A stretch of 64,000 nucleotides of DNA from a virus (IMGVR_UViG_3300005537_000024:1-64000); one strand, 5' to 3'. Shown: positions 5,574 through 31,056, numbered from the stretch's first letter. Program-made: numbers and translations. Notes: generated by a model from the sequence alone, not told the origin.

Positions 5574-6565
5574 GACGCTTTCTTCCCCTCGCGTTCTTTC
5601 TTGTTCGCCTCGTAGGACCGGAGGTCGGCGATCGCCTCCTCGAGGCGGGAGCGAGGTAGGTCGGCGAGCGCCGCGAGCTCCGGGTGGCCTTTCGGGCGCG
5701 TCTCGCTCAGGTGCTTGATAAGGTGCTCGTTCGGGCACCCGACCGCGTCGCGGAACTCGCAGAGGCGCGCGAGTTCCTCGTCGTTGAGGGCCTCGCCGAC
5801 GACGACCGGGCGGCCGGCAGACTTGCCATCGTCGTCCTCGCCCTGGGCGACGAGCCCGAGTGAGGCGAAGGCGGTGTGCCGCTTCGCGTAGGACACGGAG
5901 GACGCCCACGCCTGGACGTTGTTCTTGCTCCCGCCCGTGTCGGCCGGGAGGTCGAAGTAGCAGGAGTCGTCGGTGTGCCCGTGGCCGCGGAGGACCGCAG
6001 TGACGCGTATACGCCCGTCCGGGGCGGTCCCGATCCGGTGCGTGATGGCGAGCCCGTGCCGCGCTAGGACCGGCTTGATCAGCGGGAGGACGGTCTCCCA
6101 CTTGGCGTACGGCGTCGCCTGCGACCGGGTCTTGCCGCCCTGGGGCCGGTCCCGCGCCTCGACGACGATCCGGCCGTCCTTGGTCAGGACCGGGAGTTCC
6201 GGCGCGGCGTCGATCATCGCCCGGTCGAAGTCGACCCGGGCCTGCCGGTCGAGGAGGCGCTCCTGGATCTGCAAAAGCCGCTCAAATTTCTCCGCATCGA
6301 CTTCCTTTACGCCCGCGAGGCGCTCGATCATCTCCGTGATCCCGACGACGGCCGGAACGGGGATAGCCTGCGGCGGGCCGGAGTTGCCCGCCGGCTGGCC
6401 TTTCGCCGCCCCCCTCTTACGGGGCGCGGCGATCAGCTCCCCCTTGCCGGCGGGGCCTCCGGGCTGATCCGCGGGCGCCTCCGCCGAAACGGTCGGTTCG
6501 GCCCCCGGGACGGTCGCGAACAGGCTGTCCTCCGGGGTCGCCTTGGTCTTCGCTTTCTTGGTCAT
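5570..6565 (-). CDS. erf: ERF-family single-strand annealing protein
   Basis: YAKWE..IKPVLARHGL and SSVSYAKRH...GEDDDG ERF motifs. Confidence 0.9.
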   Translation of the reverse strand: MTKKAKTKATPEDSLFATVPGAEPTVSAEAPADQPGGPAGKGELIAAPRKRGAAKGQPAGNSGPPQAIPVPAVVGITEMIERLAGVKEVDAEKFERLLQIQERLLDRQARVDFDRAMIDAAPELPVLTKDGRIVVEARDRPQGGKTRSQATPYAKWETVLPLIKPVLARHGLAITHRIGTAPDGRIRVTAVLRGHGHTDDSCYFDLPADTGGSKNNVQAWASSVSYAKRHTAFASLGLVAQGEDDDGKSAGRPVVVGEALNDEELARLCEFRDAVGCPNEHLIKHLSETRPKGHPELAALADLPRSRLEEAIADLRSYEANKKEREGKKAS

Positions 6566-6885
6566 CGTTCAATCTCCACCATTGGCCACCGACCGCCGTC
6601 GATGGCGAGCTTCGCTGCGAACATCACGCCATCGTTGAAGATAGTTCCATGCTTGCCGAGCGTCGGCGGCGGACCTTTCGCATCCATCGCGATCGCGATG
6701 GGTCGGACTTGGCTCGCCTTGATGTACCCGACGTGGACGCCGCGGGCCCAGACTTGGACCGCGTTCGGGTCATAGCGGTTGTCGGGCTCGCGGACGAGCG
6801 TCAGGGGCTCGCCCCGCGGGAGGGAGGAGACGAGCCCCTCCGTCCCGCGGTGCTTCATGCCGACGAGGGCGACTAGCGACTTCAC
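6562..6885 (-). CDS. HIRAN domain protein
   Basis: [16 protein letters not shown]...HVGYI signature. Confidence 0.88.
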
Positions 6886-7142
6886 CTGAGCCCCCCCTTC
6901 TCGTCGTAGAGCTGCTCGCGGCAGGCGTCGAAAAACCGGACCTTCATGCTGTCCACGTAGTCGACCCTCATCCCGGACGGGTTCGGCGCGGGGATGCAGC
7001 CCACGATTAGCTTCAGCCGCGTCTCGAGGACGGCGACCGTCGTCCGCAGGCTCTCGATCGCGCGCGGCGCCTCTTCGGCGCAGCGGTCGCAGTGACCGCA
7101 CGCGGTCCCGAGTATCCACGATCCCGTACAGATCGCGGTCAT
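6882..7142 (-). CDS. Hypothetical protein with Cys cluster
   Basis: [15 protein letters not shown]; coupled ORF. Confidence 0.55.
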
Positions 7143-7636
7143 CGCGCCCTCTCCGCTAGATCGGGGCGATGCCATCGCGCCGGTTCAGCGATCGCCCTTT
7201 CAGGCGTCCAACCCTGCTCTATGCGGCTACATACGAGGCGACGGTTTAGCCCGAGAGACTTGATTACGTCGGAGAGCGGCATCCTGCGCCCGTTGACCAT
7301 GACGAACCGCGTCGTCCTGCGGTTGGCGTTCTGCTCGCCGCGGGTGGCCCAGCGAACGTTCCCCGGCTCATAATTGCCGTCGTTGTCCGGAAAGCGGTCG
7401 ATCGTGTGCTTGGACGTCGGACGCCTCCCCACATCCAGGAGGAAGTTACAGAAGCTGTCGCGCCACCGGTCGCAGACTATGATCCCTCGCCCTCCGTAGT
7501 GATCGAACCATTCGTGGTTCGGGTTTAAGCAACGGGCCTTCATGTCCTGCCAGCATTGATATTCAGGAGACCGCCGACCTTTCGGGGAATGCCCGTGGCG
7601 GAGCCCGTTCTTGTTGCCTGGTTTAGCTCCCCTCAT
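7139..7636 (-). CDS. HNH-like homing endonuclease
   Basis: [19 protein letters not shown]...[19 protein letters not shown]; lower GC than flanks. Confidence 0.85.
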
Positions 7637-8544
7637 CGGACGACACTCCGGTTGCGGCGCCCGACCTCGGCGCCGTCCATCGTCTTTCGGTAGTCGTGGA
7701 CCTTCGCCCAGGCGGTCAGCGCCTGCTCGATCGCCTTGAGCGGGAGGAACGGCCAGAGGGCCTCCATGTCGAGCTTCGTCCTATCGACGACTTCCGCGTA
7801 CTTCTCCTGCCCCATCGTCGAAAGCGTCCCGTCCGCGCCCCGGGACCGCATGATGTCGGCCGGTTTCGCGAGGGTGGCGATGTGCGCCTCCTCGGCTCGC
7901 GCGGTCGAGACCGTCGCCTCGACCTTGGCGGCGTCGGCGGCGGCCTCCTGCCCGCGGGCGGCCTCGCCCTTCACCGCGATCGTCTCGGGCTTTCGAGCGC
8001 GCTCGGCGGCCAAGCGGGCCTCCTCCGCTTGGCGCGCCTCGCGGTCCGCCTTCTCCTGCGCCTCGCGCGCAAGCCTAGCCTGTTCCGCCGCCTCGCGCTC
8101 GCGCCTCGCGCGCTCCTCCGCGAGCTTTCGGTTGTCATAGTCGGTCAGCCGCGCATTAAGCACGTCGGCCGCGCCGGGGTTGTTGGTCTTCGCCCGCCGC
8201 GCGAGCTTGTCGACGAGCCCGAAGAAGAACTGGTCGACGGCCTGCCCGCCGCGGAGGTACGGCTGTTTTTCCTTGGAATGGAACGCCTCGATCGCCTTCG
8301 CGGTGTCGCGGAGGCGCTTGATTAGCGGAACGACCCGAGCCTTCGTCGCGTCGTCCTCGATCGTCTTCGGGATCTCTCGGGCCTCTTCGAGGAGCGCGGC
8401 CACGATTTGCGGCTGCCTCGCGTACTCATCCTCGAGGAAGGCGGTCGTAACGGCGGCGAAGTCGCCCTCCTCGGCGGCGATCGACCGGGCGAGGGGCGGA
8501 AAATTTGCGCCAACTTGCAGGCGCGGGTCTGCGGTCTCGTTCAA
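7633..8544 (-). CDS. Coiled-coil phage protein of the recombination region
   Basis: TTG start; GANFPP N-terminal motif, EKQPYL..GQAVD, long E/A/R-rich helix. Confidence 0.65.
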   Translation of the reverse strand: MNETADPRLQVGANFPPLARSIAAEEGDFAAVTTAFLEDEYARQPQIVAALLEEAREIPKTIEDDATKARVVPLIKRLRDTAKAIEAFHSKEKQPYLRGGQAVDQFFFGLVDKLARRAKTNNPGAADVLNARLTDYDNRKLAEERARREREAAEQARLAREAQEKADREARQAEEARLAAERARKPETIAVKGEAARGQEAAADAAKVEATVSTARAEEAHIATLAKPADIMRSRGADGTLSTMGQEKYAEVVDRTKLDMEALWPFLPLKAIEQALTAWAKVHDYRKTMDGAEVGRRNRSVVR

Positions 8545-8978
8545 AACGTGATCTCTTCGTTGTTGGGCTGGCCGGACGGCGAGCCGGAAGCGTATAGGGG
8601 CATGTCGACCGGCGGCGGCTCGACCCGGACCGGTTCGACCGGGACCGGGCACCGTTCCAGGTTCTTGCCGCGGACCGTCGCGAACTCCCCGTGCTCTCGG
8701 CGCCACGGGGACCGCTCGTCGACCCTGATCCAGACCGCGTCGTCGCAGATGGCGACGACCTCCCCGACGCAGCTAGCATCGTCCTTGCACACCACGCGCT
8801 CCCCCACGTCGAACTTGAGGAGCGCGATCCCGACGACCTTGCTGAGGGTTACCGCGAACCCGTTGTGCTCGACCTTGACGTGGACGAGGTCTTCGCCGGG
8901 CTGGACGTCGAACTTGACCTTCGCGTGGACGACGAGGACGTCGCCCTCGCGCGGCAGGTATCCTTTTGGCAGGCTCAT
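8541..8978 (-). CDS. Hypothetical protein
   Basis: ATG after GGAG; coupled ORF. Confidence 0.55.
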   Translation of the reverse strand: MSLPKGYLPREGDVLVVHAKVKFDVQPGEDLVHVKVEHNGFAVTLSKVVGIALLKFDVGERVVCKDDASCVGEVVAICDDAVWIRVDERSPWRREHGEFATVRGKNLERCPVPVEPVRVEPPPVDMPLYASGSPSGQPNNEEITF

Positions 8979-10861: not shown

Positions 10862-11254
10862 GTGACCGACTTCCGCGACGCTATCGTGAGGAGGCTTAGG
10901 GAGGAGAACGACGAGCTACGCGAGCGGGTCAGGCAGCTCGAGGAGCTATTCTACGGCGGCGACGAGTTCACGCCGCCCGAGTGGGGCCTCACGGCGCAGG
11001 AGCAGATCCTATTCTGGCTCCTCGTCCGGCGCCGGCACGTGACGCGGGACCAGGCCATGACGGCGCTCTACAGCGACCGGGCGGACTGCGACGTCGACCC
11101 GAAGGTCGTCGACGTGTTCGTCTGCAAGATGCGCGCGAAGCTCGGGCGCCACGGCATCAGCATCGCGACGCACTGGGGGAGAGGCTTCGAGCTCGACGCG
11201 GCGACGCGGGCGCGGTTCCGGCGCCCGCTCCCCGCCGCGCAGAGGAGGGCGTGA
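10862..11254 (+). CDS. OmpR/PhoB-type winged-helix protein, CtrA-like, no receiver domain
   Basis: LTAQE...PKVVDVFVCKMRAKL...IATHWGRGF; N-terminal coiled coil. Confidence 0.8.
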   Translation: MTDFRDAIVRRLREENDELRERVRQLEELFYGGDEFTPPEWGLTAQEQILFWLLVRRRHVTRDQAMTALYSDRADCDVDPKVVDVFVCKMRAKLGRHGISIATHWGRGFELDAATRARFRRPLPAAQRRA

Positions 11255-11895
11255 TGCTCGACCGGACCGAGCGCCTGGACGACCCGCTCCTCGCCGGCCT
11301 CCCGGACGGGCACTTCGGCGCGATCCTCTGCGACCCGCCGTGGCGGTTCAAGACGTGGAACAACGTGACCGCTATCAAGCGGCGCGGGAAGGGGACGAAC
11401 GTTTCCAGCGCGGTTCACTATAGGACGATGACGCTCGCAGAGATCGCCGCGGTCCCGGTCGGCAGCGCCGCCGCGCCGGACTGCGCGCTATTCCTATGGA
11501 TCTCCTGGCCGATGCTGAGGGACGCGCTCAAGGTCATCGAGTGGTGGGGGTTCGAGTACAAGACCTGCGCGTTCGACTGGGCGAAGGCGCGCGTCGACCA
11601 GATCGACATGTTCCGCGACGACGCGGACGCGAGCATGGGGATGGGCTACTGGACGCGGGCCAACACGGAGCCGTGCCTCCTCGCGACGCGCGGCCGGCCG
11701 CGGCGCCTGCACAGGGACGTTCGCATGGGGGTCATCGAGCCGCGGCGCGAGCACTCGCGCAAGCCGGACTGCGTGCACAAGCGGATCGAGCGGCTCGTCG
11801 GCGGACCGTACCTGGAGCTCTGGGCCCGGCAGGACCGGCCCGGGTGGACGGTCCGGGGCGACGAGGTCGGGAAGTTCAGGGAGGCGGCAGAGTAA
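11254..11895 (+). CDS. MT-A70 family N6-adenine methyltransferase
   Basis: ILCDPPW, LFLW, GMGYWTRANTE, REHSRKP, YLELWAR. Confidence 0.92.
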   Translation: MLDRTERLDDPLLAGLPDGHFGAILCDPPWRFKTWNNVTAIKRRGKGTNVSSAVHYRTMTLAEIAAVPVGSAAAPDCALFLWISWPMLRDALKVIEWWGFEYKTCAFDWAKARVDQIDMFRDDADASMGMGYWTRANTEPCLLATRGRPRRLHRDVRMGVIEPRREHSRKPDCVHKRIERLVGGPYLELWARQDRPGWTVRGDEVGKFREAAE

Positions 11896-14476: not shown

Positions 14477-14832
14477 CGTTCGAGCACCCACACGACGCGG
14501 CGATGGCGGGGATGCGCGACGGCATCCTCGGGTCGCCGCCGCGGCACGTGGGGAACTTCTGCGAGGTCTACGAGCGCGGCTACGTGCTCGGGGGCGGCGA
14601 GCGGCGGCGGAGGGAGAAGCTGATGAAGCGCGGGACGAAGGTGAGCTACCGGTCGATCGACGGGCAGGTCTACGAGGGCGTCCTGTTCTGCGACGTGCGC
14701 GCGGACGGGACCGTGGGGGTCGACGTGGACGTGCCGACGTGCAAGGACAACCCGCTCTCGCTCACGCGGGTCAACTGGAGCGACGCCCCGAGCGACAAGA
14801 GCTACACGGCGTGGCCGAGGGAGGGCGCGTGA
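14473..14832 (+). CDS. Hypothetical protein
   Basis: GTGA-coupled at both ends. Confidence 0.5.
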   Translation: MTFEHPHDAAMAGMRDGILGSPPRHVGNFCEVYERGYVLGGGERRRREKLMKRGTKVSYRSIDGQVYEGVLFCDVRADGTVGVDVDVPTCKDNPLSLTRVNWSDAPSDKSYTAWPREGA

Positions 14833-15410
14833 CTAAGCCGAGGATCGAGAGCTCCTGGCCGGCGTCGAAGGTCTCGCTGTGGCCGATCGACAAGATCATC
14901 CCGTACGAGAACAACCCGCGCACGCACCCCCCGGCGCAGATAGACCTCCTCGCGCGGTCGATGCTGGAGGACGGGGTGACGACGCCGATCCTCGTCGACG
15001 AGGAGGGAGTGATCATCGCCGGCCACGGGCGACTGATGGCGTCGATGCAGAACGGGTTCAAAAAGTACCCCGTCGCCGTCGCGCGCGGGTGGACCGAGGA
15101 GCGCAAGCGCGCGGTCCGCGTCAAGGACAACCAGTACGGCCTCATGAGCGGGTGGGACCGCGAGCTGATCCGCGGCGAGATCGCGTTCCTCTCGGGCGCC
15201 GGCGAGGACGTGTCCCTGCTCGGCTTCGGCGACGCGCAGCTCGTCCAGTTCACGACGCTGCCGGGTCCGCCGTCCGAGTTCCAGGCGTTCGGCGAGGACA
15301 TCCCCGTGACCCACCGCTGCCCGAAGTGCGGGTACACGGGTTCTGGCGACTGGAGGGCGAAGCCGCAGGAGCCGGCGGCGCCGAAGAAGGGGAACGGGAA
15401 GAACCGGTGA
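14829..15410 (+). CDS. ParB/Srx-like N-terminal domain protein with C-terminal CPKCG
   Basis: IIPYENNPRTH...PILVDE..IIAGHGRL. Confidence 0.88.
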   Translation: MTKPRIESSWPASKVSLWPIDKIIPYENNPRTHPPAQIDLLARSMLEDGVTTPILVDEEGVIIAGHGRLMASMQNGFKKYPVAVARGWTEERKRAVRVKDNQYGLMSGWDRELIRGEIAFLSGAGEDVSLLGFGDAQLVQFTTLPGPPSEFQAFGEDIPVTHRCPKCGYTGSGDWRAKPQEPAAPKKGNGKNR

Positions 15411-16906
15411 AGCCCCCGTACCGCGTCCCTACGATGGCGGAGGTCGCCGCCACCCCTCGAAACGGCCTCAAGATCTTATCGACCTTCAGCGGCGCCGGGG
15501 GCTCGTGCCTCGGCTTCCGGATGGCCGGGTTCGAGGTCCTCTGGGCGAGCGAGTTCGTCGAGGCGGCGCGCGAGGTCTACGCGGCGAACGCCGGCCCGGG
15601 GACCGTGCTTGACGGAAGGGACATCCGGCTTGTCGACCCGGTCGAAGTGCTTGACGAGCTCGGCCTCGCGGTTGGCGAGCTCGACGTGCTCGAAGGGTCG
15701 CCCCCCTGCGCGAGCTTCTCGACGGCGGGCAAGCGGTCGGCGCATTGGGGGAAGGTCAAGAAGTACTCCGACACGGAGCAGCGGACCGACGACCTGTTCT
15801 TCGAGTACGTCCGCTTCCTGCGGGCGATGCGGCCGCGGGCGTTCGTCGCGGAGAACGTGAGCGGGCTCGTGAAGGGGGTCGCGAAGGGGTACTTCCTCGA
15901 GGTCCTCGCCGCGATGAAGGGCTGCGGCTACCGGGTCGAGGCGCGGCTCCTCGACGCGCAGTGGCTCGGGGTTCCGCAGCAGCGCCAGCGGATCATCTTC
16001 GTCGGCGCGCGCGAGGACCTCGGGGTCGACCCGGCGTTCCCTTCGCCGCTTCCCTACCGCTACAGCGTCCGCGACGCGATCCCGCACGCCTCCGCCGTCG
16101 GAGGCGTGCGGGCAACCGGCTTCAGCGGGTCCAAGATGGCCCGGTCGTCGAGCCCGTCGCCGACGATCATGGCCGGCGGCGGGAACGGGATGAACACGTC
16201 GCAGTTCGGGATCGAGGTCGAGCCGGAATGCGACATCTCCCGCTTCGCGATCGGCCGATCCGCCGGCGAACTCAACCCCGGGAAGTACCACCCGAAGCAC
16301 AAGCAGCTCATCGTCGCCGACCCGTCCGAGCCGAACCCGACGATTTCCCAGCGGCACGGCGGCGCCGGCGTGGCGTCCGTCGTGATCGAGGCGCGCAGGG
16401 TCGCTCACAGCGACACGGTCCCGGAGAACGTCGGCGCGTCGCTAGAGGGCTACGCCGTCGGCGCAGAGTACGATCGCCTGAACCCGGGGCAGTCGTCGGA
16501 CCGGTTCTTCAACCTCGTGCGGGCCGACCTAGACCAGCCGTCCCCGACCATAACCGGGCAGGGAAGCGGGGCCGGCGCGGGAGTCCCCGGTAGCGTGGCC
16601 TCGGTCTGCCATCCGACCGAGAAGCGCAAGTTCGCGATCGCCGAGCTGCGGCGGATATGCGGGTTTCCGGACGACTTCGCGCTCTCGGGGACCTACGCGC
16701 AGCAGTGGGAGCGGCTCGGCCGCGCCGTGCCGCCCCCGATGGCCTGCGCGATCGCGTTCAAGGTCGCGGAGATGCTCGCAAAAGCTCCGCCCAAAACGAC
16801 TGCGCGCGCTCGACGTTCTCGGGCCGGTTCCACCAAAGGCTTTTCCCCGAAGGGTGGGGGCAGACGGCCACGTGCGCGCAGTCGCGGGCGAAGCGCGACC
16901 ACTTGA
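15407..16906 (+). CDS. DNA cytosine-C5 methyltransferase fold; probable carboxymethyltransferase
   Basis: Motifs I FSGAGG, IV GSPPC, VI ENV, VIII QQRQR; motif X reads LGRAVPP rather than GNAV. Confidence 0.9.
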   Translation: MKPPYRVPTMAEVAATPRNGLKILSTFSGAGGSCLGFRMAGFEVLWASEFVEAAREVYAANAGPGTVLDGRDIRLVDPVEVLDELGLAVGELDVLEGSPPCASFSTAGKRSAHWGKVKKYSDTEQRTDDLFFEYVRFLRAMRPRAFVAENVSGLVKGVAKGYFLEVLAAMKGCGYRVEARLLDAQWLGVPQQRQRIIFVGAREDLGVDPAFPSPLPYRYSVRDAIPHASAVGGVRATGFSGSKMARSSSPSPTIMAGGGNGMNTSQFGIEVEPECDISRFAIGRSAGELNPGKYHPKHKQLIVADPSEPNPTISQRHGGAGVASVVIEARRVAHSDTVPENVGASLEGYAVGAEYDRLNPGQSSDRFFNLVRADLDQPSPTITGQGSGAGAGVPGSVASVCHPTEKRKFAIAELRRICGFPDDFALSGTYAQQWERLGRAVPPPMACAIAFKVAEMLAKAPPKTTARARRSRAGSTKGFSPKGGGRRPRARSRGRSATT

Positions 16907-17216
16907 GCGGCTCAAGCTGCCGGAGCCCTAACGCCCCGGCGACGCTGGCCCCGAGCAGGACGACGACGTCCCTGGCCGCGACGACCTCCGCCATCGCCGC
17001 CGCGGCGGCCTTTGCCTCCGCCATCGGGAAGCGATCGCCGCCGGAGGGCGAGGGGCCGGGCCAGTATGAGAGCAGGTTCGCCCGGTCGAACCGCGCCAGG
17101 AAGCTGGTCCGACCGAGCCCGCAGAGGGCGGCGAGCCGCCGGCCGGAACGACCGGACAGCGGCTCCCCGAGGACGGAGCGGCGCGAGGGCGCCTGCCCGA
17201 TGATGAGGGGCTTCAT
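16758..17216 (-). CDS. Uracil-DNA glycosylase superfamily protein
   Basis: IIGQAP, GRSGRRL, ANLL, VLLG, PHPSG motifs. Confidence 0.8.
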   Translation of the reverse strand: MKPLIIGQAPSRRSVLGEPLSGRSGRRLAALCGLGRTSFLARFDRANLLSYWPGPSPSGGDRFPMAEAKAAAAAMAEVVAARDVVVLLGASVAGALGLRQLEPLKWSRFARDCAHVAVCPHPSGKSLWWNRPENVERAQSFWAELLRASPRP

Positions 17217-17476
17217 GCAGCATCGTCCTCGACTTCGTCCCGGAGGACGATCTGGTCGGAGGTCCACTCCGTGCCGTCTTCGGCTAGGAAAACCGGCTTG
17301 TCGTCCCGAATCACGGTCTCCTGGTCGTCCCAAAAAACCGTTGTTGCTCCCAGCCAGTCGAAAGTGACGTTGCCGTCCTTGTCTCTCTCGAAGGAGTCGT
17401 CGGTGATCTCGGCGCGAGCCGAAACCACTTCCAGGGTGCCCATGATGGGCGACCCGTTGGGAGCGAACGCCCTCAT
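17213..17476 (-). CDS. Hypothetical acidic protein
   Basis: ATGA-coupled 87 aa ORF. Confidence 0.55.
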   Translation of the reverse strand: MRAFAPNGSPIMGTLEVVSARAEITDDSFERDKDGNVTFDWLGATTVFWDDQETVIRDDKPVFLAEDGTEWTSDQIVLRDEVEDDAA

Positions 17477-18240
17477 GCTGCTACCCCTTTCTGGGTGACG
17501 ACGAAGCGTCCCTCGACGCGCTCGACCTTGGCGCCGACCTTCTCGCAGACGCGGCGGAGCGTGACGGCGCACTTCTTCCAGCCGCCGAGCTTCTTGCACA
17601 GCTCCGCCTCGGTCGCGCCGATCGAGCCGGCCGCCACCGCGGCGTCGAGGAGGAGCGCCTGCTTAGATCCCGCCCGGAGGCCGTCCGGCCGGCTAGAAGC
17701 TGCCGCCGGCTGGCCTTCCGCCGGGGCGGCGACCTTTGGCGCCCGCGGCGCCTTCCGCTGCTTGGCGCCCTTCTCAAGGGCTGCGACGGCGTCCGTCCCG
17801 GCCGGGGCAGTCATGAGGGTCATCACGTCGTCGGCCGCGGCCTCGCCGAGCGTCTTCGCCTTGCGCGCCTTGGCCGGCTTGGGCGCCTTGGCGGCCTTAG
17901 GCTTGGCGCCGGAGCTACGGAGCTGCGAAGGGTTCGCGCCGAGCATCTTCGCCGCGGCGCTCGCCTTGGACTTCGGGTTCTTGATCTTCGCCGCCTTGGC
18001 GTCCTTCGCCTTGAGCGCCTTGCGCTCCTCGGGGGTCAGCTTCGGCCGGACGAGGAAGCTCGGCACGCTAAGGTCGTCTGCCAAGCCTGCGGGCGCCGGG
18101 GCGTTGTCGGTTTCGTTAGCGTTCATGGTAGTTTCCTTCGGGTTCGCCGGAGCGGCACGCGCCGGCTTGGTGGGTCGCTTGGTGATCCAGTTAGCGTTGC
18201 GGGCCTCGCGGAGCCTCGCCTCCTTCGGCCCGATCTTCAC
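17473..18240 (-). CDS. Lys/Ala-rich H1-like protein with C-terminal DUF3489-like winged helix
   Basis: KPKAAKAPKPAKARKAK tract; LRAGSKQALL...ATEAELCKKLGGW; alternative start 18126. Confidence 0.6.
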   Translation of the reverse strand: MKIGPKEARLREARNANWITKRPTKPARAAPANPKETTMNANETDNAPAPAGLADDLSVPSFLVRPKLTPEERKALKAKDAKAAKIKNPKSKASAAAKMLGANPSQLRSSGAKPKAAKAPKPAKARKAKTLGEAAADDVMTLMTAPAGTDAVAALEKGAKQRKAPRAPKVAAPAEGQPAAASSRPDGLRAGSKQALLLDAAVAAGSIGATEAELCKKLGGWKKCAVTLRRVCEKVGAKVERVEGRFVVTQKGVAA

Positions 18241-18677
18241 GACGGCACAAACCGGCCATGCTTGTCGCGGCGAGGTTCCCAGTTGTTCGCCTTGCGAGTA
18301 GCCCAGCCGCGAAGGACGCGATCTCTATCGTTCTGCTCGCGTTGATTCTCGCGCTGCTCTGACGGCGTAGCCCAGCGGCAGTTGGTCGGCTCGTAATTGC
18401 CGTCGACGTCCGGGTAGCGGTCGATCGTGTGGCGCTGCGACGGCTTCGGTCCCATGTCCGCGAGGAAGGCGGAGAAGTCTTTGCGCCACCTCTCGCAAAC
18501 TTTGATGCCTCGACCGCCGTAGTATTTGAACCCTATGTGGCTAGGGCGCTTGCAACGGTCGATCATGGCGCACCACGTTCGATATTCCGCCGTTAGTTTT
18601 CCCCGCGCCGCGTGGCCGTGCTTGGTATTTCGTGCAACGAGATCAGCCCTTGTGGTTATGCCAACTCCTTCCAGCAT
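18237..18677 (-). CDS. HNH-like homing endonuclease, paralogue of 7139-7636
   Basis: EYRTWCAMIDRC..YGGRGIKVCERW...TIDRYPDVDGNYEPTNCRWAT; start uncertain. Confidence 0.8.
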   Translation of the reverse strand: MLEGVGITTRADLVARNTKHGHAARGKLTAEYRTWCAMIDRCKRPSHIGFKYYGGRGIKVCERWRKDFSAFLADMGPKPSQRHTIDRYPDVDGNYEPTNCRWATPSEQRENQREQNDRDRVLRGWATRKANNWEPRRDKHGRFVPS

Positions 18678-18990
18678 CGTGAGAGTGAACTCCCCGGGCG
18701 ACGGCCTTGCGGTCGACGCCGCGGCCGGCAAGCTGCTCGGCCTTGGCGATCTCCGCCCGGGCGAGCGCGCTCCCCGTCGCCATGATGCGGCGGTAGGCGC
18801 AGGCGTCCGTGACGCCGTTGCGCTCGGCCGCGTCGTCCCAGCCCTTGAACGTGATCGCGCCCTGGGGGCCGACGACCGCCTTTACGAGGCCCTTCTTGAG
18901 CTTCGCCTCGAGGGCGGCGACTGCCTTGAGGACCTCGGCGATCCGTTCCTGCACGGTCTGCTTGGGCTTCCGCATGGTTTCGCAGGCCAT
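18643..18990 (-). CDS. Uncharacterised protein, AAA-associated
   Basis: GVTDACAYRR and HSHDAGRSWHNH motifs; TAATG-coupled. Confidence 0.75.
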   Translation of the reverse strand: MACETMRKPKQTVQERIAEVLKAVAALEAKLKKGLVKAVVGPQGAITFKGWDDAAERNGVTDACAYRRIMATGSALARAEIAKAEQLAGRGVDRKAVARGVHSHDAGRSWHNHKG

Positions 18991-19805
18991 TAGCGCGGCT
19001 CCCCCTGCTCGGCGGCGCGGAGGTCGGCGTTCGACGCCTTCCAGATCGCGGAGTCCTCGAGGTCGAGCGCGGCCGCGGCCTTCGGGGCGGCGGCGGCGAC
19101 CTCGTCCTCGCCGAAGTCTAGGAAGGCGGCGCGCAGCTCCGTGATCTTGCGGATCGCGGACTTGTCGACGCCGATCGCCTTGCCGTCCTTCTGGTCCCGG
19201 ACGATCTGCGACGCCGCCGCGCGCGCGGTCGCGACGGCCATCTCGACCTTGGTCTGCGCGTCGACCGTGAGCATCTCGCCGATGCCCTTGACGCGGCTCG
19301 CGGCCTCGCGGATCGCCGCCGCGTCGCCCCCCTCGACGCCGCCCGCCATCGCGGCCATCAGCTCCGTGATCTCGGAATTGATCGCGCGGACGGCCTCGAC
19401 GTCGTCCGGCATGACGCGGCCGGCGAGGACGTAGAGCGTGACGGTGGTCAGGGACGAGCTGGCGTTGAACTCCTCGACGACGACCTTCGCGGCGGCGACC
19501 GCGGCGTCGAGCTTGTCGGAGCTAACCTCCGGGCAGAGGAGACCGAAGGCGGTCTGCGAGCAGACGGAGCGGATGAGGCCGCACGCGCGGGTCCGTGCCT
19601 TCTTGGCCCGGTCGTGTTCGACGGGGTCGTCGATCGTACGCTCCATCTCCCAGCGGGCGACGGCGGCGCCCTCGGGCGTAGCGGCGGCGCCGTCGATCGC
19701 GGGCGTGCTTTCGAGGTCGCGGCGAGCGTAGTGGACGTTCCCGCGGACGCTCGTCTTGAGGGCGACGAGGAACCCGGGGCGGAGGGTCGTGCTGCTGATG
19801 GTCAT
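18990..19805 (-). CDS. Uncharacterised helical protein, AAA-associated
   Basis: AGGAG RBS; LRPGFLVALKTS N-terminus. Confidence 0.75.
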   Translation of the reverse strand: MTISSTTLRPGFLVALKTSVRGNVHYARRDLESTPAIDGAAATPEGAAVARWEMERTIDDPVEHDRAKKARTRACGLIRSVCSQTAFGLLCPEVSSDKLDAAVAAAKVVVEEFNASSSLTTVTLYVLAGRVMPDDVEAVRAINSEITELMAAMAGGVEGGDAAAIREAASRVKGIGEMLTVDAQTKVEMAVATARAAASQIVRDQKDGKAIGVDKSAIRKITELRAAFLDFGEDEVAAAAPKAAAALDLEDSAIWKASNADLRAAEQGEPR

Positions 19806-19814
19806 TTGGTGGTC

Positions 19815-19879
19815 TCCTATCGGCGGGGTGATTCCCCGGCGCGGCCCTACTAGGAAGCTGCGCGCCGGGGGATGTACAG
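19815..19879 (-). promoter_or_regulatory. Duplicated upstream element, copy A
   Basis: CTGTACATC..GCGCGCAGCTT..TAGG..GCGCCGGGG..CGCCGATAGGA shared with 21653-21724. Confidence 0.65.
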
Positions 19880-19900
19880 GGCGTCGTGGAAAAATATCCC

Positions 19901-21475
19901 CTAGATGTCGAGCGAGCGGAGGCGGGGGGCGGAGGTCTTCTCCTCGGCGACGCCGGCCGGCCGAGCCTTGCCGACCGCCCATTCCCGCAGCGCCTTGATC
20001 TTCGGCGCGGCGGTCTTCGAGAGCGGGACGACGCCCTTCGCGGCGGCGAGCAGGTCGTCCGTCGCGATCGCGCGCTCGCCGTCGTTGAAGGCGGCGAACA
20101 TCGCCTCGGGGACGACGGCCGCGATCTCGGCGCCGGTGAACCCCTCGGTCGCGTCGGCGACCGCGCCGCAGTCGACCGAGTTCGGGTCGCGCTCGAAGCC
20201 GCGAAGCGTGGCGAACGCGATCTGCGCGCGCTCCTGGTTCGTCGGGAGGTCGACGAAGAACAGCTCGTCAAACCGGCCCTTGCGGAGGAGCTCCGGCGGG
20301 AGGGCGGAGACGTCGTTCGCGGTCGCGATCACGAACGCCTCGGACGAGCGATCCTGCATCCACGTGAGGACGGCGCCGAGCTGGTCGGCGGAGGTCCCGC
20401 CGTCGGAGGAGCCGGAGGTCGCGCCCTGCATCGCCTTCTCGATCTCGTCGAGCCAGACTACGCACCTGCCCACGGCCTCGATGACCTTGAACGCCTTGCG
20501 GATGTTCTGCTCGGACTCGCCGACGAACTTCGACTTGAGGGCGCCGAGGTCCATGCGGATCAGCGGGACGCCGAAGAACGTCGCGGTCGCCTTCGCGGTG
20601 TACGTTTTGCCCGTGCCCGGGATGCCGACGATCAAGACGCCCTTCGGGGTCGGGATCTTCGCGGCCCGCGCCTTCGCGGAGAACGCAGCGACGCGCGACT
20701 TGAGCCACGCCTTCAGGTTCTCGAGGCCGCCGACCGCGTCGAGGCCGCCGGGCAGGGGGTCGCACCACTCGAGGATTCGCTCGCGGGCGATCACGCGCTG
20801 CTTCTCCTTCGAGACGACGGCGGGGTCGACGCGGCGGAGCTTGACGAGCGAGTGGTTGAAACAAGCGACGGCCTCCTCCTCGGTCAGGCCGACCGCGGCG
20901 TCGATCGCCGCCTCGCGCTTGCCGTTGAGCGGCTCGACCTTGTCGCCGCCGGACCGGACGGCCTCGTCGAGCACCTCGCCGATCTCGGCGCGGTCGGGGA
21001 GCGGCCACTCGATGACGGTCGCGTGGTTGGCAAGCTCCGGGGGGACCTCGCCGCCCGGGGAAAGGACGACGACTGCCTGCGTGCTCGCGAGGTCGGCGGC
21101 CGGGAGGGAGCGGGCCAGGTTGCGGAGCTGGCGGAGTGTCGTCGAGCCACCTATCCCGGAGAGCCACGCCGGGAGGTCGCGCATGATCCAGAGGCCGCGG
21201 AACGGGTCGGAAGTGCGCCGGGAAGCGTTGCGGACCTCGTCGAGCGCGGTCCCGGCGTCGCGGGAGCCCTCAGGCTCGGGGAGCGGGTCGCCCTGATCGT
21301 TGGCAAGCCCGACCGCGCAGTCCCACGTCGTGACGCGGTACTTGAGCGCCGCGGCGGCGGCGGCGAGGTATCGCTCGACCCGAGCCTCCTCGCGGCTCAC
21401 GATCCAGATTAGGGGCTTGCGGGCGCGGAGGAGGGCGGCGACGTCGGCGGCGACTTCTTGCGAGCGGGTTTTCAT
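19901..21475 (-). CDS. Ycf46-like AAA+ ATPase
   Basis: Walker A GIPGTGKT, Walker B VWLDEIEK, SRH ATAN..LPPELLRKGRFDELFFVDLP; degenerate N-terminal AAA-like region. Confidence 0.92.
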   Translation of the reverse strand: MKTRSQEVAADVAALLRARKPLIWIVSREEARVERYLAAAAAALKYRVTTWDCAVGLANDQGDPLPEPEGSRDAGTALDEVRNASRRTSDPFRGLWIMRDLPAWLSGIGGSTTLRQLRNLARSLPAADLASTQAVVVLSPGGEVPPELANHATVIEWPLPDRAEIGEVLDEAVRSGGDKVEPLNGKREAAIDAAVGLTEEEAVACFNHSLVKLRRVDPAVVSKEKQRVIARERILEWCDPLPGGLDAVGGLENLKAWLKSRVAAFSAKARAAKIPTPKGVLIVGIPGTGKTYTAKATATFFGVPLIRMDLGALKSKFVGESEQNIRKAFKVIEAVGRCVVWLDEIEKAMQGATSGSSDGGTSADQLGAVLTWMQDRSSEAFVIATANDVSALPPELLRKGRFDELFFVDLPTNQERAQIAFATLRGFERDPNSVDCGAVADATEGFTGAEIAAVVPEAMFAAFNDGERAIATDDLLAAAKGVVPLSKTAAPKIKALREWAVGKARPAGVAEEKTSAPRLRSLDI

Positions 21476-21642
21476 TGGGCGAGCTCCGTGGTGAAACCGG
21501 GAAGGGTACGGGCCGAGCGGTAGAGCGCGACCGAGGCGGCGAGCTCCGCGGTCGCGCACCTGATCGGCTGGCCCCGCGCGTCGCACGCGATCTTGAGCAG
21601 GCCGGCCGCGTCGCGGTAGCGGGCGAAGTAGAATTGTTCCAT
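21472..21642 (-). CDS. Small hypothetical protein
   Basis: 56 aa MEQFYFARYRDAAG..., ATGA-coupled to the ATPase. Confidence 0.5.
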   Translation of the reverse strand: MEQFYFARYRDAAGLLKIACDARGQPIRCATAELAASVALYRSARTLPGFTTELAQ

Positions 21643-21652
21643 CGAGGTATTT

Positions 21653-21724
21653 TCCTATCGGCGAGGGACGGGAATCTCCCCCGGCGCAATTCCTATTGAA
21701 AGCTGCGCGCTGGCCGATGTACAG
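21653..21724 (-). promoter_or_regulatory. Duplicated upstream element, copy B
   Basis: Same block order as 19815-19879. Confidence 0.65.
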
Positions 21725-21725
21725 T
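21696..21725 (+). promoter_or_regulatory. Candidate sigma70 promoter for the cmoA-like gene (near-leaderless)
   Basis: TTGAAA-N18-TACAGT ending 5 nt before ATG 21731; no SD sequence. Confidence 0.45.
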
Positions 21726-21730
21726 CCCCC

Positions 21731-22420
21731 ATGAAGAAAAATGTCCCCGTCCCCAGCAAGTTCAAGATCCCCGACAATTGGACGTTCCGGAGCGAAAGCG
21801 TCGCGCGGAACTTCGACCAGCACGTCCGCGAATCGCTCCCGTGGTACGACCTCGCGACGGGCATCATCGTCCACGTCGCCCGGTCGTACCTCCCGCGGCG
21901 CGGCGTCGTCGTCGACGTCGGGGCCTCGACCGGCAACATCGGCCGCGCGCTCGCCCCGATCCTGAAGGTGCGCGAGGCGCAGCTCGTCGCGATCGACTCG
22001 GCGGCGGAGATGGCCGCGGTCTACGACGCTCCGGGCCAGTTCGTCGTCATGGACGCCGTCGAGTTCAACTTCGCGAACCGTCGTCCCGACCTGATCGTCT
22101 GTTTCCTCGCGCTCCAGTTCGTCCCGGTCGCCGAGCGGGGTGGCCTAGTTCAACGCATGATCGGAGCGATTCGTCCGGGGGGCGCCGTCGTCGTTTTCGA
22201 TAAGATGGTGCCGCGGCCCGGCTACGTCGGGACGGTCGCCTACCGGATGACGCTCGCTGCGAAGTCGGAAGCCGGGGCGTCGCCGGCGGAGATCGTCGCG
22301 AAGGAGCTCTCGATCGCCGGCGTCCAGCGCCCGCTCGCAGAGGAGGAGCTCGCCGGCTTCGTCGAGGTCTTCCGGTTCGGCGACTTCGCCGGCTTCGTCC
22401 GCGAGCGCCCGGCGCTGTAG
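21731..22420 (+). CDS. cmoA: CmoA-like carboxy-SAM synthase / SAM-dependent methyltransferase
   Basis: WTF...VARNFDQHVRESLPWYD, VDVGASTG, AIDS, LQFVP, EIVAKELSIAGV. Confidence 0.8.
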   Translation: MKKNVPVPSKFKIPDNWTFRSESVARNFDQHVRESLPWYDLATGIIVHVARSYLPRRGVVVDVGASTGNIGRALAPILKVREAQLVAIDSAAEMAAVYDAPGQFVVMDAVEFNFANRRPDLIVCFLALQFVPVAERGGLVQRMIGAIRPGGAVVVFDKMVPRPGYVGTVAYRMTLAAKSEAGASPAEIVAKELSIAGVQRPLAEEELAGFVEVFRFGDFAGFVRERPAL

Positions 22421-23991: not shown

Positions 23992-24251
23992 GGCTCATGC
24001 GCAACCAGCTTACCGGCAAGGGCAAGTACACCGTCTTCGACAATCGCAAGCGTTTGGTCGTGGCCAACGACGGCCCGGGCGAGGAGAATGAGCACTTTGT
24101 TTTGATGTTAAAGGACAAGTACGCGCGGGCGGCGCTGCTCGCCTACGCGCGGGCGGCGACGGAGGACGGGGACCACGAGTACGCCGCCGACGTGACGGAG
24201 CTCGCCGACCGGGCCGGCGAATGTCACCCCAAGTGCAAGAGGCCGGACTGA
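23988..24251 (+). CDS. Hypothetical phage protein
   Basis: AGGAG RBS; FVLMLKDKYARAALLAYA motif. Confidence 0.6.
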   Translation: MRLMRNQLTGKGKYTVFDNRKRLVVANDGPGEENEHFVLMLKDKYARAALLAYARAATEDGDHEYAADVTELADRAGECHPKCKRPD

Positions 24252-25084
24252 TGGGCGAGAACACGAAGATCGAGTGGGCCACGCACACCTTTAACCCCTG
24301 GTTTGGTTGCCAGAAGGTCTCGCCGGGCTGCGACAACTGCTACGCCGAGGCGCTGATGGACAAGCGGCTCGGTCGCGTCCAGTGGGGGCCGCACGGCGAG
24401 CGCGTGCGCACGAGTACGGCGAACTGGAACCTACCATTGAAGTGGGCGATGGCCGCCCGCGGCGCGCGCGAGCGCCCGCGAGTGTTCTGCGCCTCGCTCG
24501 CCGACGTGTTCGACAACCAGGTCTCGGACGAGTGGCGCAGCGACCTATTCGCGCTGATCGAGAACACGCCGGAGCTTGACTGGCTCCTGCTAACGAAGCG
24601 GCCGGAGAACGTCCGCGCGATGCTGCCGGCGTGGTGGCAACCGCCGCTAAGCGCGCCTATGTGGCTCGGCGTGACGGCCGAGGACCAGCACAACTTCGAC
24701 CGGCGCTGGGCGATCCTCCGCATGGTCTGGGCGCGCGTCCGGTTCGTGAGCTACGAGCCCGCGCTCGGCCCGCTGCTGATCGACCACCTCGAGGACGACG
24801 CATACCCGGACTGGATAATCTGCGGCGGCGAGAGCGGGCCGAACGCGCGGCCGATGAACCCCGCCTGGGCCCGGGACCTGCGCGACCAATGCGCCGCCAA
24901 CGGCGTCCCGTTCCTGTTCAAGCAGTGGGGCGAGTGGGCGCCGTTTTACTATCGCGACGACGGTGAGCCTCGAAGGAGTCACGAGTTCGGTGACGTGCGC
25001 GTCCATCGGATAGGCAAGCTGAACGCCGGGCGTCTCCTCGACGGCGCCGAGCACAACGCGTTCCCAACCTGGGAGGAAAGGTGA
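24251..25084 (+). CDS. Phage Gp37/Gp68 (DUF5131) three-Cys radical-SAM-like protein
   Basis: TKIEW..TFNPW.GC.KVSPGCDNCYA, LLLTKR, FVSYEP, GGESG, FKQWG. Confidence 0.92.
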   Translation: MGENTKIEWATHTFNPWFGCQKVSPGCDNCYAEALMDKRLGRVQWGPHGERVRTSTANWNLPLKWAMAARGARERPRVFCASLADVFDNQVSDEWRSDLFALIENTPELDWLLLTKRPENVRAMLPAWWQPPLSAPMWLGVTAEDQHNFDRRWAILRMVWARVRFVSYEPALGPLLIDHLEDDAYPDWIICGGESGPNARPMNPAWARDLRDQCAANGVPFLFKQWGEWAPFYYRDDGEPRRSHEFGDVRVHRIGKLNAGRLLDGAEHNAFPTWEER

Positions 25085-30793: not shown

Positions 30794-31056
30794 TGTCGGC
30801 GGAGACGATGCTGCGCGAGGCGCTCGACCCGAAGAACTTCCCCCGGTGGGCGCAGGCGTGCCCGAAGTCGTTCGAGGAGATGCAGAAGTCGATCGCCAGG
30901 GCCGCGGTGATGATGGCGAAGCTCCCGCTCGCCGACAGTACGCGGGCGACCCTGACAATGACGCTCGGCGACGTGGCGGCGTCGTGCTGGGCCGCGGGCC
31001 AGCGGTCGGTCAAGGAGGGCAACCTCGACGTCGACGCCTTGCAGGGGAAGGGCTGA
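30793..31056 (+). CDS. Hypothetical protein
   Basis: TGATG-coupled at both ends. Confidence 0.55.
   Translation: MSAETMLREALDPKNFPRWAQACPKSFEEMQKSIARAAVMMAKLPLADSTRATLTMTLGDVAASCWAAGQRSVKEGNLDVDALQGKG

Follow-up and report, generated by a model that had tools for sequence, protein, structure and literature searches.

A predicted CmoA/CmoX-type pathway for DNA cytosine carboxymethylation in a complete high-GC phage genome

We analyzed a 64,000-nucleotide stretch of viral DNA, IMGVR_UViG_3300005537_000024:1-64000 (the window), which encodes a putative DNA cytosine C5-methyltransferase (MTase) and a CmoA-like protein. Together, these proteins had been predicted to generate 5-carboxymethylcytosine (5cxmC) in phage DNA using carboxy-S-adenosylmethionine (carboxy-SAM, Cx-SAM). 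The window comprises bases 1-64000 of a 72,561-bp IMG/VR record that is rated complete and has 120-bp direct terminal repeats. Scans using Pfam and PHROG revealed a tailed-phage gene set, the window covering most of the complete 72.6-kb genome. The genes and codons that bear most directly on the predicted pathway are as follows.

15407..16906, + strand: putative CmoX-type DNA cytosine C5-(carboxy)methyltransferase; 499 aa, GTG start; best PDB match 8YF3
16721..16723, + strand: CGC codon of MTase Arg439, at the position of SpCmoX Arg350, M.HhaI Asn304, and M.MpeI Asn374
21731..22420, + strand: CmoA-like gene, putative carboxy-SAM synthase of a K-E...Q-R-P class; 229 aa; best PDB match 4GEK (EcCmoA)
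22304..22306, + strand: GAG codon of Glu192 in the CmoA-like protein, aligned to EcCmoA Arg199
22328..22330, + strand: CGC codon of Arg200 in the Q-R-P motif, eight residues after Glu192; candidate replacement for Arg199

The MTase has the motifs FSGAGG (motif I, at 15485), GSPPCASF (motif IV, with its Cys codon at 15707-15709), ENV (15851), QRQR (15980), and QQWERLGRAVPP (motif X). Motifs I to VIII lie within residues ~22-208 and are followed by a long variable, target-recognition region and then by motif X, GRAVPP. The spacing between motifs VIII and X is 244 residues, as compared to 74-161 in shorter relatives. The Arg-rich C-terminal tail of ~45 aa is not conserved and overlaps the 3' end of a uracil-DNA glycosylase (UDG)-like gene on the opposite strand (16758-16906, 149 nt). 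The GC content at third codon positions (GC3) is 0.86-0.98 throughout the open reading frame (ORF), which argues that the frame is a real coding one. The protein scored 177.3 bits against PF00145, DNA_methylase (cut-off 22), and 154.7 bits against TIGR00675 (cut-off 100.65). Searched against all PDB sequences, it matched SpCmoX (8YF3) first, with an expectation value (E) of 4.4e-56; the next distinct protein was HaeIII (E 5.7e-23). HMMER paired "rlGRavpp" of the MTase with "rvGRmvpp" of SpCmoX and with "GNavp" of HaeIII and DNMT1. Thus, the substitution from which the original prediction started, Arg for Asn in motif X of a C5-MTase, was reproduced, with the CGC codon at 16721-16723.

SpCmoX is part of the CmoA-CmoX-CmoY system of Synechococcus phage S-B43, which was published in December 2025 (Yang et al., Nat Commun 2025; PMC12783734). 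According to the main text of that paper, SpCmoA converts SAM and prephenate to carboxy-SAM, SpCmoX, a C5-MTase homolog, forms 5cxmC at GC sites, and SpCmoY joins glycine to the carboxylate. Wild-type SpCmoX is described as accepting Cx-SAM as its sole cofactor and not SAM. In 8YF3, solved at 1.9 Å, the carboxymethyl group is touched by Arg350, which stands in place of M.HhaI Asn304. The SpCmoX variant R350N was inactive with either cofactor. The same text describes the engineered N374K variant of M.MpeI, in which replacement of the Asn of motif X by a basic residue leads to Cx-SAM use; this is the cofactor switch that the original prediction had invoked. The variant resembles the window MTase in having a basic residue at this position and differs from it in being engineered, carrying Lys rather than Arg, targeting CG, and needing a host CmoA.

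In a four-way alignment, each of the nine residues that the paper singles out in SpCmoX was conserved: F25, E47, F48, D69, S95-P96-P97-C98, and R350 correspond to F27, E49, F50, D72, S98-P99-P100-C101, and R439, respectively, in the MTase. The tetrad includes the SPPC motif that served as a search criterion in PMC12783734. Using SPPC and R350, 5,615 candidate CmoX proteins were reported there, with 4,257 CmoAs, 2,251 ligases, and 1,660 ParBc proteins on the same contigs. Identification of the MTase as a CmoX is thus supported by all of the sequence criteria that we checked, carboxymethyl transfer itself being predicted. The two proteins share ~40% identity in the catalytic domain, and the window MTase is 127 residues longer. 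As most of the additional residues lie in the recognition region, the GC specificity of SpCmoX is not transferable to it.

The CmoA-like gene opens a rightward operon that reaches a DnaJ-domain gene, a DUF5131 gene, and the terminase. Between 16906 and 21731, every ORF with a coding-like GC pattern is on the minus strand. The CmoA-like gene is therefore the next + strand gene after that of the MTase, as had been claimed. CmoA was the top match to its product in PDB sequences, NCBIfam, and Foldseek alike. Among PDB sequences, the best match was EcCmoA (4GEK; E 5.5e-10). The protein matched PHROG phrog_4752, "tRNA methyltransferase", with an E of 2e-49, and in Pfam it gave only generic matches (Methyltransf_25/11/12/23). 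When cultured phages were searched using tblastn, a gene of Moraxella phage Mcat8 ranked first (41%), followed by staphylococcal, Erwinia, Synechococcus, and Streptomyces phage genes, several of which are labelled cmoA. An AlphaFold2 (AF2) model based on a 56-row alignment had a predicted local distance difference test score (pLDDT) of 90.9. Foldseek placed 4GEK first (E 2.8e-14, template modeling (TM) score 0.77), with CysG, BelI, and MM_2633 within one order of magnitude.

At the residue level, Y39, D62, G64, S66, and D89 of EcCmoA are identical in the CmoA-like protein, and D117 corresponds to D108. The residue aligned to E164 is Asp, the one alternative reported at that position. The protein resembles that of the bacterial CmoA/CmoB pathway to uridine 5-oxyacetic acid (cmo5U) in its predicted fold and in most SAM-binding residues. 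It differs in that Arg199 is replaced and in that the predicted acceptor is DNA cytosine rather than 5-hydroxyuridine (ho5U) of tRNA. A tblastn search of the phage for CmoB yielded no homolog (best E 1.5).

The original prediction had proposed the co-occurrence of Arg-type MTases and cmoA as a check, and we evaluated it from both sides. On the CmoA side, the sample consisted of 24 IMG/VR loci encoding relatives of the CmoA-like protein. Fourteen of these contained a C5-MTase; the other 10 had none in the stretch covered. Motif X read G-R-x-V in 18 of 18 proteins, namely those 14 and the MTases of Mcat8, S-B43, Streptomyces phage TurkishDelight, and the window. On the MTase side, we used the best 80 of 122 related stretches. 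Motif X carried Arg in 72 (including locus L052, A-R-A-V), Asn in seven, and Leu in one. A CmoA homolog was present in 69 of the 72 Arg-type loci versus none of the eight others (Fisher p 6e-9, the rows being related to one another). In all three Arg-type loci without CmoA (L031, L064, and L105), the MTase is at the contig end. The Asn-type MTases read QQWERLGNSVPP, a motif that differs from that of the window MTase essentially at the one residue, and eight more Asn-type loci, obtained in a UDG-side search described below, likewise had no CmoA. Since relatedness inflates such counts, a quick maximum-likelihood tree was also computed from 80 distinct MTases, taken from the window and loci L006-L107 after removal of identical rows and rows shorter than 250 aa.

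The CmoA proteins of the related loci were compared at the same positions. Canonical K-R CmoAs were found in 18 loci. The K-E...Q-R-P class comprised 71 rows (the window and 70 loci), and the Q-R-P Arg followed K-E by eight residues in 71 of 71. The class has Asp at EcCmoA position 164 in 70 of the 71 rows (Glu in L100) and Phe at position 132 in 70 (Met in L059). In a few rows, such as SpCmoA and the TurkishDelight protein, a basic residue at +4 stands in place of the Q-R-P Arg. On the MTase tree, the class of the CmoA partner flips at least 15 times, the same motif X occurring with either class. This alternation argues for a common cofactor being supplied by the two classes. It is the best evidence available that the K-E...Q-R-P class, too, would supply Cx-SAM.

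Based on these comparisons, it is highly probable that this phage encodes the core of a CmoA/CmoX-type pathway, in which two enzymes modify the DNA. What was originally predicted, a 5cxmC pathway consisting of an Arg-type C5-MTase and a CmoA-like protein, corresponds to the S-B43 system, as judged by 8YF3 being the best match and by the nine conserved residues. The kind of pathway has thus already been published (PMC12783734), and this phage adds a further member. In the proposed mechanism, the CmoA-like protein would convert SAM and prephenate to carboxy-SAM. Cys101 of the MTase would then attack C6 of cytosine while Arg439 holds the carboxylate of carboxy-SAM, and the carboxymethyl group would be transferred to C5, yielding 5cxmC. 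This step is proposed based on the residue-for-residue conservation with crystallized SpCmoX. The likely gain would be resistance to host restriction, as SpCmoX-modified DNA resists HhaI according to the main text of PMC12783734.

The window and S-B43 systems share a C5-MTase with SPPC and a carboxylate-binding Arg, conservation of all of the named cofactor residues, a phage CmoA homolog that lacks Arg199 of EcCmoA, and an associated ParBc protein. They differ in that the window CmoA is of another class, with 24% identity to SpCmoA and a Q-R-P Arg where SpCmoA has an Arg at +4. In addition, the window phage has no CmoY ligase, its genes are not contiguous, and its host is presumably a high-GC Gram-negative bacterium and not a cyanobacterium.

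The closest cultured-phage homologs are those of TurkishDelight and Mcat8, and both MTases have G-R-x-V. In TurkishDelight (gp122-gp125), the gene order is ParB, MTase (53.5% identity), GATase/AsnS, and CmoA-like (28.8%); a GATase/asparagine synthetase (AsnS) ligase gene thus lies between the MTase and CmoA-like genes, unlike in the window. In Mcat8 (AKI27362/AKI27361), the MTase and CmoA-like protein have 40.6% and 41.1% identity, respectively, to those of the window, and the latter has the same K-E...Q-R-P motif. Unlike in the window, the two genes overlap and adjoin the terminase. Neither record is annotated as a carboxymethylation system.

Several observations weigh against a CmoA/CmoX-type pathway in this phage. 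The best NCBIfam match of the CmoA-like protein, TIGR00740 (CmoA), scored 53.3 bits versus a cut-off of 193.3, and the match to PRK15451 (47.3 bits versus 285) was also under the equivalog threshold. EcCmoA N132 is replaced by Phe (Leu in SpCmoA), and EcCmoA Arg199 by Glu192 in the HMMER, MAFFT, and BLASTP alignments. The fold search was rejected as a means of discriminating CmoA from other methyltransferases: the C-methyltransferases CysG and BelI were approximately tied with 4GEK (E 6e-14 versus 3e-14), so the fold leaves function unsettled. The MTase and CmoA-like genes are separated by 4.8 kb containing seven minus-strand ORFs, five of which, the AAA ATPase and HNH genes included, lack conservation in the two closest relatives. 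Finally, the loss of Arg in motif X corresponds to only two independent changes on the MTase tree, an Asn clade (SH-like approximate likelihood ratio test (SH-aLRT) support, 98) and L039, both nested among Arg-type branches.

The accounts in PMC4482062 and PMC3663124 describe Arg199 as the sole side chain that touches the Cx-SAM carboxylate in EcCmoA. Its replacement had been raised as a caveat in the original prediction, where the Arg of the CmoA QKR motif was aligned by eye to AKE with an Arg in nearby VQRP. The caveat was borne out in that Glu192 occupies the position in every alignment and Arg200, in VQRP, follows eight residues on. In the AF2 model, Arg200 is in an extended segment directly after helix 185-194. 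We infer that it is a candidate substitute for Arg199 in carboxylate binding. A BLASTP alignment with EcCmoA revealed a Glu here in SpCmoA as well; SpCmoA and EcCmoA are the only CmoAs named as tested in the main text of PMC12783734. Because SpCmoA has been biochemically validated, Arg199 is not required for activity, and the caveat loses most of its force.

The divergent active site (R199 to E, N132 to F, and E164 to D), the score far under the CmoA cut-off, and the equally good matches to the CysG and BelI folds would also suit an enzyme that makes another SAM analog or uses a donor other than prephenate, in which case the MTase would install a different acidic group. We consider this improbable: the K-E...Q-R-P class alternates with K-R CmoAs beside MTases that share an identical QQWERLGRAVPP, the same AsnS-type ligases follow both classes, and validated SpCmoA likewise has Glu at position 199. 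It is harder still to credit that the MTase is an ordinary SAM-dependent enzyme forming 5-methylcytosine (5mC) and the 229-aa protein an unrelated small-molecule or RNA methyltransferase, paired by a coincidence of synteny. The distance between the genes, the minus-strand block that separates them, and the generic Pfam matches are compatible with such a coincidence. However, it would leave unexplained why CmoA accompanies nearly all of the Arg-type MTases, in several gene orders, and never their Asn-type sisters, in which the motif, QQWERLGNSVPP, is otherwise identical. Rejection of SAM by wild-type SpCmoX, as described in PMC12783734, also argues against it.

Given a CmoA/CmoX-type pathway, the nature of its end product depends on whether the carboxylate is elaborated. 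The original prediction had noted that no ligase was seen, and this holds genome-wide. The whole 72,561-bp record contained no match to Asn_synthase (PF00733) in a scan for which the control was positive in 14 of 14 genomes. Similarly, tblastn searches of the phage with SpCmoY and TurkishDelight gp124 yielded a best E of 0.04, and Pfam scans of 64, 12, and 10 ORFs revealed no ligase and no ATP-grasp, AMP-binding, or GATase domain. Five relatives that have both CmoX and CmoA are complete (CheckV 100%), and four of these had no Asn_synthase match anywhere in the record, which argues that absence of the ligase is a stable feature of this lineage. The exception is L006 (complete, 74 kb), the closest relative, in which a GATase/Asn_synthase gene lies exactly between CmoX and the UDG-like gene. 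In the window and L013, there is no ligase at this junction, and the MTase and UDG-like genes overlap tail to tail. As the complete genome contains no Asn-synthetase-like amide ligase, we lean toward unelaborated 5cxmC as the end product in this phage, rather than the glycyl amide of S-B43.

Alternatively, 5cxmC may be only an intermediate whose carboxylate is elaborated by an unrecognized phage or host enzyme, as an amide or ester, to give a hypermodified virion base. There is precedent in S-B43, whose virions contained the glycyl amide only, with no 5cxmC detected (PMC12783734, main text), and an AsnS-type ligase occurs in 25 of the 80 MTase-side loci, the closest relative among them. Moreover, many ORFs of the window phage have no family assignment, such that the negative searches speak only of recognizable ligases, a further point against bare 5cxmC. 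Nevertheless, we judge elaboration unlikely, though it merits serious consideration, in view of the empty PF00733 scan, the negative searches with two ligase types, the lack of ATP-grasp, AMP-binding, and GATase domains in the ORFs scanned, and the four ligase-less relatives.

Two further genes adjoin that of the MTase, one upstream and one convergent with it.

14829..15410, + strand: ParB_N-like (ParBc) gene; 193 aa, GTG start; PHROG phrog_620, "ParB-like partition protein", E 7e-42
16758..17219, - strand: UDG-superfamily gene; 153 aa; motifs GQAPS and PHPSG-x-x-WWN; convergent with the MTase gene, 149-nt overlap

The start codon of the ParB-like gene overlaps the upstream stop codon within a GTGA sequence, and its own stop codon overlaps the MTase start codon at 15407 in the same manner. 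The ParB-like gene is thus translationally coupled to that of the MTase via the GTGA overlap. Its match to Pfam ParB_N (E 1e-4, 22.6 bits) was under the cut-off of 26.3. A ParB homolog was present upstream of the MTase in 67 of the 80 related loci.

ParB_N-like domains were also observed in a different context on the CmoA side. In L023, a 506-aa protein (6469-7989) is a fusion of two ParB_N-like domains and a class I methyltransferase (Methyltransf_23) without C5-MTase motifs. Its gene is directly upstream of, and overlaps, a K-E...Q-R-P CmoA-like gene at 7986-8627. The same pairing occurred in four of the 24 CmoA-side loci (L022, L023, L025, and L026). The fusions are identical to one another at levels down to 47%, and the GC content of the loci ranges from 54% to 73%. 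Yang et al. state in the main text of PMC12783734 that a preliminary search gave no candidates for a CmoA-associated non-C5 DNA carboxymethyltransferase. Judging from its domains and its neighbor, the fusion could be such an enzyme.

The UDG-like protein matched the Pfam UDG family, PF03167, at 30.4 bits (cut-off 24.3) and PHROG phrog_12275, a family of unknown function. Its AF2 model (pLDDT 94.3) most closely resembled UdgX and family-4 UDGs in Foldseek (E 1e-6, TM 0.65-0.69), and its best PDB sequence match was the uncharacterized protein 3IKB. The UDG alignment contained 42 rows, L148 and L152 being left out due to a stop codon in the row. UDG homologs adjoin the MTase convergently in L006, L007, L008, L013, and L031 and are located between CmoX and CmoA, on the same strand, in L033, L034, and L035. 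In a UDG-side survey of 80 loci (L109-L188), an MTase of the window family was found within 7 kb in 29, and none was found in 51. The 29 comprised 18 Arg-type loci with CmoA, one Arg-type locus without CmoA in the stretch covered, eight Asn-type loci without CmoA, and two that were not resolved. A role specific to the Cx-SAM pathway was therefore ruled out for the UDG-like gene, as eight of the 29 UDG-linked MTases are Asn-type without CmoA. As its neighbors are both Asn- and Arg-type, the gene is tied to the ParB/C5-MTase family and not to carboxy-SAM. Tentatively, we regard it as a member of the modification module.

In Dcm-Vsr and M.MthTI-Mig, a C5-MTase is paired with a repair enzyme for deaminated 5mC. 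The arrangement in the window is alike in that a repair-type gene, here of the UDG fold, is directly beside a C5-MTase gene, with both Asn- and Arg-type members. It is unlike those systems in that the protein belongs to the UDG superfamily and is closest to UdgX and family 4. By analogy, we hypothesize that the UDG-like protein may handle deaminated target bases as Vsr does; more broadly, it may speculatively treat base damage linked to the action of the C5-MTase. The main text of PMC12783734 mentions no glycosylase.

These elements can be combined in a single picture. In it, bare 5cxmC would be terminal in virions, the Arg of this CmoA class would have moved from helix position 199 to the Q-R-P loop, the UDG-fold protein would be a Vsr-like guardian that removes deamination products at (carboxy)methylated cytosines, and the fusion of L022, L023, L025, and L026 would be a non-C5 carboxymethyltransferase. 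We consider the conjunction of all four doubtful and put it forward only tentatively.

The analysis has implications for the method as well as for the pathway. Motif X and a neighboring gene, read without tools, sufficed to call a DNA hypermodification pathway correctly. The correspondence between the Arg/Asn state of sister MTases and the presence of CmoA supports the published CmoA/CmoX model through an independent, comparative line of evidence. Going beyond the main text of PMC12783734, complete genomes with CmoX and CmoA and no ligase predict the natural occurrence of unelaborated 5cxmC. Also beyond that text are the large class of CmoAs without Arg199, the link to a UDG-fold gene, and a candidate non-C5 user of carboxy-SAM. 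Methylation sequencing already employs carboxymethylating enzymes, and the larger recognition domain of the window MTase may offer a different target motif.

The genome has a GC content of ~69% (0.66-0.72 across the window). In its left part, YqaJ, ERF, MT-A70 methylase, and DUF1376 replication-initiator-like genes represent recombination and replication functions; terminase, portal, MuF, head, sheath-type tail, and baseplate genes are further downstream. The terminase is closest to those of Burkholderia and Bordetella phages (~52% identity). Near the right genome end, an outer membrane protein (OMP) beta-barrel gene (OMP_b-brl, E 1e-10) at genome position 70277-71077 (L108:8278-9078) suggests that the host may be Gram-negative.

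The minus-strand genes between the MTase and CmoA-like genes encode the UDG-like protein, two unknowns (o128 and o255), an HNH endonuclease, o115 and o330, which belong to PHROG families without known function, and an AAA ATPase. Apart from the UDG-like gene, these genes were considered as possible members of the module and rejected. Among them, o128 and o255 alone have counterparts in the two closest relatives; the HNH, o115, o330, and AAA genes do not recur there and were therefore treated as unrelated cargo. The HNH endonuclease gene (18237-18731, - strand; PHROG E 2e-37) has a GC3 of 0.73, as compared to 0.87-0.91 in its neighbors, is absent from L006 and L013, and is probably a mobile insertion.

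Elsewhere in the genome, an MT-A70-type DNA methyltransferase (10981-11895, + strand; E 2e-19) is the second DNA methyltransferase of the phage, and a DUF5131 protein is encoded at 24221-25084 (+ strand; E 1e-83). With these two genes, the phage may have additional DNA modification functions. The portal protein (30846-33263, + strand; Phage_portal_3, E 3e-71) has an ADP-ribosyltransferase domain at its C-terminus (residues 659-783; PF03496, E 1.5e-8), and its gene is followed by a MuF-like one. Finally, an 870-aa DUF2213 protein (41608-44220, + strand) has a NUDIX hydrolase domain joined at its N-terminus.

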